Shown: positions 59,130 to 59,493 of the stretch, one piece after another | Layout: each line of letters starts with the position of its first letter | Numbering within the stretch: position 1 is the first letter of the stretch | Source of the DNA: an uncultured Chloroflexia bacterium | GTDB lineage: Bacteria; Chloroflexota; Limnocylindria; QHBO01 | DNA length: 64,000 nt | Reading direction: 5' to 3' | Assembly (NCBI GenBank): GCA_963806695.1 | Contig: CAWDYT010000008.1 | Span: 20,643 to 84,642 of the forward strand | Notes under the pieces: model-generated | What the model was told of the DNA's origin: nothing | Seen by the model: only the letters and a program-made list of their open reading frames with translations | Databases searched by the model: none | Program-made: the position numbers and the translations under genes

Positions 59130-59252
59130 TCAGAGGATCGCGCGCGCGAGGTTGGCCAGCGACAGCGACAGCAGCGACGCGACGGCCATCGCGGCCACCG
59201 CGAGGCGCAGTCGAAGACCTCCCGCTGTGCGCAGGGTGAGTGACCCGATCAT
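59130..59252 (-). CDS. Small 40-aa hydrophobic peptide (missing from the ORF track)
   Basis: MIGSLTLRTAGGLRLRLAVAAMAVASLLSLSLANLARAIL-stop; SD AAAGAGGAG 5 nt upstream. Confidence 0.6.
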   Translation of the reverse strand: MIGSLTLRTAGGLRLRLAVAAMAVASLLSLSLANLARAIL

Positions 59253-59493
59253 CTCCGCTCCTCTTTGTCGTTCGCCCGGTGGCGATCGTCCCTTGGTCAG
59301 GCTGCATGCTCGCCGACCCGTTGCCTATCGCCTCGACGACAGAGTGGGTGTCGCCGACCGGACATCTCGAAGAGCAGTCGCGCTGGGCTCGGTGTGGCTC
59401 ACCTCGCATGACCGGGGAACGGTGTAGACGCTGGGCCCGGATCCCTGATGCCGGCTTGCCCGCAGTGGGCACGGGTGCGACCATGCGGGGCCG

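Follow-up and report, generated by a model that had tools for sequence, protein, structure and literature searches.

A candidate lineage-restricted small membrane protein gene in a deletion scar of an uncultured Chloroflexia genome

The ALDH–LON gap and its counterpart in the sister genome

The analysed DNA is a 64,000-nt stretch, hereafter the window, which corresponds to C8:20643-84642 of a metagenome-assembled genome from an uncultured Chloroflexia bacterium (G000; 2.14 Mb in 23 contigs, 57% complete). Within it, a gap of 437 bp separates two plus-strand genes, one for an aldehyde dehydrogenase (ALDH) and the other for a protein with a LON substrate-binding domain. The GC content at this locus is about 70%. 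The minus strand of the gap harbors a short open reading frame (sORF), and its features are listed in Table 1. The sORF is present as an earlier note on this DNA had described it, with a basic N-terminus, a single hydrophobic stretch of transmembrane length and a strong Shine-Dalgarno (SD) sequence. The N-terminal 17 residues of the encoded peptide contain three arginines (R8, R14, and R16), and are followed by a single hydrophobic stretch from A18 to L40. The Kyte-Doolittle maximum over 19 residues is 2.0. Small residues with i, i+4 spacing, namely A21, A25, S29, and A33, line one face of the helix.

Table 1. Features in and around the gap between the ALDH and LON-domain genes (window coordinates)
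Feature	Position	Strand	Basis or remark
Aldehyde dehydrogenase gene (ALDH)	57545..59056	+	Pfam PF00171, E 1e-171; start codon approximate; convergent with sORF
7-bp GC hairpin, GAGGCGG-ACU-CCGCCUC	59110..59126		Between the convergent sORF and ALDH stops; 3 nt after the sORF stop
sORF	59130..59252	-	ATG start, TGA stop, 40 aa; codon log-likelihood, G024 identity, alignment of 12 variants
Shine-Dalgarno sequence AAAGAGGAG	59258..59266	-	GAGGAG ending 5 nt before the ATG
Spacer homologous to the G024 regulator-to-sORF spacer (L023 5049-5169)	59253..59376	-	17% mismatches and a 4-nt indel
9-bp stem with one G-U pair	59333..59357	-	z -1.49; outer pairs lost in G024
Decayed remnant of a lipoprotein gene (last ~20 codons; DUF6923, beta-propeller-type)	59377..59448	+	tblastn, blastn, alignment; Pfam of the intact G024 gene
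Upstream region of the LON-domain gene	59449..59493	+	Conserved with G024, G078, and further genus members
LON substrate-binding-domain gene	59494..60207	+	Pfam PF02190, E 8e-30; divergent from sORF

The closest relative of the source genome is another uncultured Chloroflexia genome (G024; CAWJMZ010000001.1, 93% complete), whose ALDH gene is 91% identical at the nucleotide level and 95% at the amino acid level. There, the ALDH and LON-domain genes are 3.8 kb apart. Read along the minus strand of the window, the order in G024 is LON-domain gene, lipoprotein gene, histidine kinase gene, response regulator gene, a 148-nt spacer, sORF, and ALDH. The lipoprotein has 370 residues with DUF6923 repeats and is encoded on the opposite strand. 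The histidine kinase is a multi-pass protein of 523 residues with HisKA_3 and HATPase_c domains (PF07730 and PF02518), and the response regulator has 220 residues with a receiver domain and a LuxR-type helix-turn-helix (PF00072 and PF00196). A 335-aa plus-strand ORF of G024 (L023 1593-2600) was rejected as spurious, the real gene at that place being the lipoprotein gene on the other strand. The sORF and ALDH stops are 22 nt apart in G024, and in the window 73 nt lie between the sORF and ALDH.

Positions 59122-59377 of the window align with the spacer and sORF of G024 at 85% identity. Beyond them lies the lipoprotein remnant, which is matched by the G024 lipoprotein in tblastn (E 0.002, including the motif GSVW.TS) and by the orthologous gene of another genus member, G078, in blastn (L055 317-346, E 0.007); its stop codon is at the homologous place. 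The presence of this remnant and of a junction next to it indicates that a deletion occurred. By this comparison, the gap is a deletion scar with its junction at about 59377, and approximately 3.4 kb was lost (G024 L023 1560-5022), between a point ~20 codons ahead of the lipoprotein stop and one 26 nt past the regulator stop. The deletion removed most of the lipoprotein gene, the kinase gene, and the regulator gene. It left the spacer, the sORF, and the final lipoprotein codons in place.

The ALDH and LON-domain genes are adjacent across the genus, mostly with a gap shorter than ~200 bp, and several genomes carry differing inserts there. The junction appears as a hotspot of variable content (loci L024-L028 and L013), with inserts of 0.5 to 13 kb that include a second ALDH paralogue in G018 and genes containing LuxR-type helix-turn-helix domains in G016 and G006. 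Separately, G024 has two stretches (C8:69491-69577 and C1:7930-8016) that are 90% identical to the beginning of the LON-domain gene, which suggests a second copy of this gene or of its 5' end. At least 12 genomes of the genus carry the lipoprotein, HisKA_3 kinase, and LuxR-type regulator genes together as a conserved divergent module. Four of the genomes compared (G006, G047, G048, and G286) are flagged as unpublished and no conclusion rests on any of them: G006 is among the six behind the variable content of the ALDH–LON gap, G047 is among the ten with the kinase module at another locus, and all four are counted among the genomes without the peptide.

Coding signal, distribution, and variation of the sORF

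The sORF could be a small membrane protein gene or a non-functional leftover, of chance or relic origin, between the response regulator and ALDH genes. In the latter case, which is the main rival explanation and which we regard as possible though rather unlikely, the frame would persist only through the close kinship of its carriers and the rarity of stop codons in 70% GC DNA. We scored the frame with a codon model trained on 554 long G000 ORFs that show GC3 > GC1 > GC2. The sORF gains 15.2 bits over 39 codons, i.e., 0.39 bits per codon. The corresponding values are 0.55 for ALDH and 0.57 for the LON-domain gene, and neighboring genes score 0.24-0.40, so that the sORF is below its two flanking genes but inside the range of nearby genes (0.24-0.57). 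It is the sole positive-scoring ORF of the gap; every other one is negative. We then simulated the 437-nt gap 4000 times with a first-order Markov model. An ORF of 35-70 aa occurred in 97% of the simulated gaps. The codon score of the sORF was reached in only 4 of the 4000, and its hydrophobicity in 9. A 5-nt SD sequence occurred in 464 simulated gaps, and none combined a strong SD sequence with either the codon score or the hydrophobicity. As a gene-like codon score is rare in the simulations, the frame has, or recently had, coding composition. Codon usage and hydrophobicity of this kind are very unlikely for a chance frame, and they count against a leftover. So do the translation signals, as the strong SD sequence and the start are perfectly conserved in G024: all 20 positions of the block that runs from AGGAG through ATGATCGGGT are the same, despite a 4-nt indel just upstream. 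Compared with G024, indels are present in both flanks of the sORF and absent from its inside.

The pairwise comparison with G024 points the other way. The 13 substitutions in the sORF are spread 4:4:5 over the three codon positions, compared with 18:16:100 in ALDH and 9:8:61 in the LON-domain gene. The Nei-Gojobori dN/dS is 0.62 for the sORF, and 0.05 and 0.10 for ALDH and the LON-domain gene, respectively. Strong constraint on the sORF is rejected (P 0.006) while neutrality is not. The peptides are 83% identical, and the neighboring proteins are 92-95% identical. Divergence between the two genomes amounts to 10.8% in the sORF, 17% in the spacer, and 8.4% in pooled aligned intergenic DNA. As neither the sORF nor the spacer diverges less than intergenic DNA, the pairwise comparison gives no evidence of function or constraint. 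The flat substitution pattern, the dN/dS, and a divergence at the intergenic background all favor a leftover. An argument that the sORF is constrained, based on its changing about threefold more slowly than the synonymous sites of its neighbors, was dropped, with intergenic DNA diverging by 8.4% and third codon positions by 20%.

The distribution of the sORF is narrow. Searches with the peptide or a profile found it in two of 176 genomes of the family and two of 301 genomes of the class, these being G000 and G024 in both cases; G024 was the only other carrier among the 62 other genomes of the genus, the 175 others of the family, and the 300 others of the class. Each of the two carriers has one copy (G000 being 57% and G024 93% complete). 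G078 has the same layout of LON-domain, lipoprotein, kinase, regulator, and ALDH genes, and its kinase is 87% identical. In G078, the regulator and ALDH stops are just 8 nt apart, and ~290 nt comprising the spacer and sORF are missing. Ten more genomes have the lipoprotein/kinase/regulator module at other loci with unrelated downstream genes and no comparable sORF. As G078 and these ten have the kinase operon without the sORF, the peptide is not integral to the two-component module. Absence from G078 and from all other genus genomes searched fits a leftover, and so does the loss of the adjacent operon in the window, with which any former role may have gone. Two kinds of matches were discarded. 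One in G300 (E 2e-4) is due to chance and sits in a MurE-like gene, and many weak genus-wide DNA matches to the GC-rich Leu/Ala-coding part of the ORF are compositional. A mobile-element origin of the 290-nt segment was rejected, as neither G000 and G024 nor the other genus members have a second copy of it.

Variants were sought by scanning 1.84 billion representatives with HMMER and by three cluster-level protein searches, all of which found the peptide's own family only. Twelve distinct intact variants from independent metagenomes fall into three groups of 35 or 40 residues. The first group resembles the window peptide and the second resembles the G024 peptide, both with 40 residues; members of the second are sometimes called as 57 aa from an upstream in-frame ATG. 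The third comprises 35-aa forms from ENA, Logan, and JGI assemblies with ~60-66% identity, the same start, and an intact frame. The C-termini read ...NLARAIL, ...NLAGAIL, or ...VLNLL. A21, A25, and S29 are invariant among the variants, and so is A33 in the 40-aa forms. No match to the peptide was found in Pfam, NCBIfam, or PADLOC at E up to 10, and the best score in the ESM Atlas (0.75) is uninformative. A metagenome scan returned seven loci, of which one is real (L053, 98% identical to G024 and located beside histidine kinase and response regulator genes). The other six (L047-L052) are false; they are on marine contigs of 31% GC and have two stops inside the match.

We inspected where the variants differ. 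Columns 18-32, the membrane core, have eight variant states, all of which are hydrophobic, small, or Thr/Trp; none is charged, an amide, His, or Pro. Columns 3-17 have 20 variant states, eight of them to Arg, Gln, Asp, Asn, His, or Pro. The difference in disruptive changes between the core and the N-terminal part gives a one-sided Fisher P of 0.04, with related variants and small counts. As 34-36% of random nonsynonymous single-base changes in the core codons would be disruptive, the probability of observing none in eight is ~0.03. Both values apply to variants that are not independent and that were drawn from protein databases, in which decayed copies cannot appear (ascertainment bias). The avoidance of all disruptive residues in the membrane core argues against a leftover, as does the group of 35-aa forms, which keeps the start and an intact frame at ~60% identity.

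RNA signals and the toxin and truncation readings

The earlier note had placed a long structured leader upstream of the sORF, had seen in the locus the signature of type I toxins and of riboregulated small membrane proteins, and had suggested that an antitoxin RNA could come from the plus strand. In a type I toxin-antitoxin reading, the peptide would be a membrane-damaging toxin, and both the 5' structure of its mRNA and an antisense RNA from the plus strand would keep it silent. The sequence elements it named are all present, namely the hairpin right after the stop, the 9-bp stem, and the GGUCA and UGACC 5-mers. We compared their folding energies with those of dinucleotide shuffles. The leader (59240-59420) has a z of -1.55, and 15 of 200 shuffles fold as well; the G024 leader has a z of -0.83. 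For the post-stop hairpin, z is -0.34 (minus strand) and -0.46 (plus strand); it has a U-tract on neither strand. Its outer GAGGC/GCCUC arms are also found at the same position in G024. The 9-bp stem, proposed as a leader element, is not kept in G024, with which it shares only CGACA-N7-TGTCG. The GGUCA arm at 59409-59413 and the UGACC arm at 59295-59299 do not pair in the minimum-free-energy fold. The latter consists of other bases in G024, and the former lies inside the lipoprotein remnant, and in G024 the corresponding gene end is 3.4 kb away from the ORF. The long-range helix that the two arms would form is thus not ancestral, with one arm in a pseudogene remnant. In the consensus fold of the window and G024 sequences, UGCUC (59371-59375) can form five base pairs with GAGCG in the SD region; this helix is invariant in both genomes and gives no covariation signal. 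The Rfam scan that the note had called for detected no match for the leader at E up to 10, the only hit being a sub-threshold Pseudomon-Rho fragment at 59454-59495 (17.9 bits, gathering score 45). A scan for tRNA and tmRNA detected nothing. With no fold standing out from shuffles (z from -0.3 to -1.6), no covariation, and no Rfam match, a long structured leader is not supported.

By comparison with G024, the proposed leader is the spacer of a two-component operon fused by the deletion to the lipoprotein remnant; an ancestral leader, if there was one, would have covered 59253..59376. The "leader" of a hidden ORF can thus be a deletion scar, and the anatomy of a gap should be compared with that of sister genomes before it is folded. 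Neither a sigma-70-like promoter nor an intrinsic-terminator-like site was found on either strand, for a phylum whose promoter rules are poorly known; the lack of a promoter is compatible with a leftover. The inverted repeat CGACA-N7-TGTCG (59337-59353 on the minus strand, L023 ~5070-5086) is kept in both genomes with a different 7-nt center. It is ~45 nt past the regulator stop in G024 and could serve as a terminator stem or be bound by the LuxR-type regulator.

We consider the type I toxin-antitoxin reading improbable. The peptide does resemble the known toxins (Hok, Ldr/Fst, Ibs, TisB, and ZorO; PMC2887945) in being shorter than 70 aa with a predicted transmembrane region formed by a single hydrophobic helix, intergenic, narrowly spread, and below ordinary ORF cut-offs. 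Its SD sequence is strong, pairing at the SD region is possible in the consensus fold, and, judging from gene order, the ORF would be antisense to any transcript reading through from ALDH to the LON-domain gene. Type I systems are, as a rule, narrowly distributed (PMC5367252). Yet of the heuristic features that Fozo et al. 2010 (PMC2887945) listed, most of those that can be judged from sequence are lacking. The sORF is in single copy with no tandem repeat (multiple copies are frequent, though not obligatory); its C-terminus has no polar, charged, or aromatic cluster as in the candidate definition of that study; and just 22-73 nt separate the ORF end from the neighboring gene. Searches of Pfam, NCBIfam, and PADLOC gave no match to a toxin family. 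Different from the known systems, the locus shows no recognizable antitoxin RNA, no promoter-like site on the plus strand, and no mRNA structure or Rfam match of significance. The anti-SD helix lacks compensatory changes, and it was the deletion that joined a gene remnant, now the 5' third of the proposed leader, to the ORF. In the full-text literature, we found no paper combining 'type I toxin-antitoxin' and 'Chloroflexi'. The earlier proposal thus stands in part, in that the locus is best read as a small membrane peptide gene, given the SD sequence, the codon usage, the 12 intact variants, and the hydrophobicity-preserving substitutions, but a toxin role finds no support.

Similarly improbable is that the sORF is the truncated 5' end (SD sequence, start, and signal peptide) of a lost gene for a secreted or membrane protein after the regulator gene, which would suit the n-, h-, and small-residue c-regions reminiscent of a Sec signal peptide (SLA/N near residue 33) and a locus that is a rearrangement hotspot of variable content across the genus, but the N-terminus occurs in no longer protein (71-2000-aa proteins of 5.8 billion clusters; HMMER, 1.84 billion representatives), a matching downstream gene is found in none of the 12 orthologous kinase operons examined, and all three variant groups stop just past the hydrophobic segment.

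A putative membrane peptide at the tail of a two-component operon

On balance, and with moderate confidence, we favor the sORF being a genuine, young, and weakly constrained gene for a 40-residue single-pass membrane peptide. The peptide would be translated from its strong SD sequence and inserted with the N-terminus in. Its gene was probably born or acquired at the tail of the two-component operon before the G000 and G024 lineages split, and would have been located ~150 nt downstream of the HisKA_3 kinase and LuxR-type regulator genes on the same strand, a layout that G024 keeps. The single ~3.4-kb deletion in the window lineage would then have orphaned it between ALDH and the LON-domain gene. 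Within the membrane, the small-residue face of the helix may pack against a larger membrane protein, for which the adjacent multi-pass kinase is the ancestral candidate that we infer from gene order. The small-residue face and the absence of soluble domains fit such helix binding.

Most characterized bacterial small membrane proteins pack against a larger membrane protein. Binding of this type is described for MgrB on PhoQ (PMC8404706) and for many others (PMC12648545). MgrB has 47 residues, inhibits PhoQ, and is a member of the PhoQ/PhoP regulon (PMC8404706), and SafA is a small single-pass membrane protein that modulates a sensor kinase (reviewed in PMC12648545). The sORF peptide shares with this class its size and single transmembrane helix, its small-residue face suits helix-helix packing, and in G024 it is encoded beside a membrane-embedded histidine kinase and a response regulator on the same strand. 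On the other hand, it has no sequence similarity to MgrB or SafA, and it is almost devoid of an extracytoplasmic tail while MgrB acts partly through its periplasmic region. In addition, the kinase is deleted in the window genome, and the orthologous kinases of 11 other genomes exist without the peptide. The sORF is also comparable to the lineage-restricted (orphan or de novo) small ORFs of GC-rich bacteria, being confined to few sister species, fast-evolving, and located in a ~290-nt stretch missing from the next relative, G078. What sets it apart from most chance ORFs is its strong conserved SD sequence, its gene-like codon usage, and a hydrophobic core that appears selectively maintained (P about 0.03-0.04). 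We hence refer to it as a lineage-restricted small membrane protein candidate.

A bolder version is distinctly doubtful. It holds that the peptide is recent, contained in ~290 nt added 3' of the HisKA_3/LuxR operon in one Limnocylindria lineage, that it acts on the kinase (or is a toxin checked by antisense ALDH read-through), and that it is an orphan survivor in the window. If this were true, the locus would be a case from an uncultured phylum in which the origin of a small membrane regulator and its rewiring can be dated. The genomes at hand constitute a natural experiment, with kinase and peptide in G024, the kinase alone in G078, and the peptide alone in the window genome. If the favored reading of a small membrane protein holds, one more unannotated family is gained, of which about a dozen variants are known. 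We know of no small proteins studied in the uncultured soil and freshwater Chloroflexota class to which the window genome belongs. No long-standing question is opened, and the practical value is modest as the organism is not in culture.

Several other observations were made along the way. Other gap ORFs of G000, 31-56 aa in length and non-homologous to the sORF, combine an SD sequence, gene-like codon usage, and a strongly hydrophobic helix; those at C23:31400-31629 (-), C1:24433-24765 (+), C1:118560-119023 (-), and C3:37201-37847 (+) are further small membrane protein candidates by sequence. In the window, the intergenic region 57180-57421 is unusually conserved, with four mismatches to G024 in 242 nt (1.7%, compared with the intergenic mean of 8.4%). 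Likewise, the 74-nt gap at 62724-62797 between two minus-strand genes has one mismatch to G024 (1.5%) and six indel columns, and could be a conserved regulatory element.
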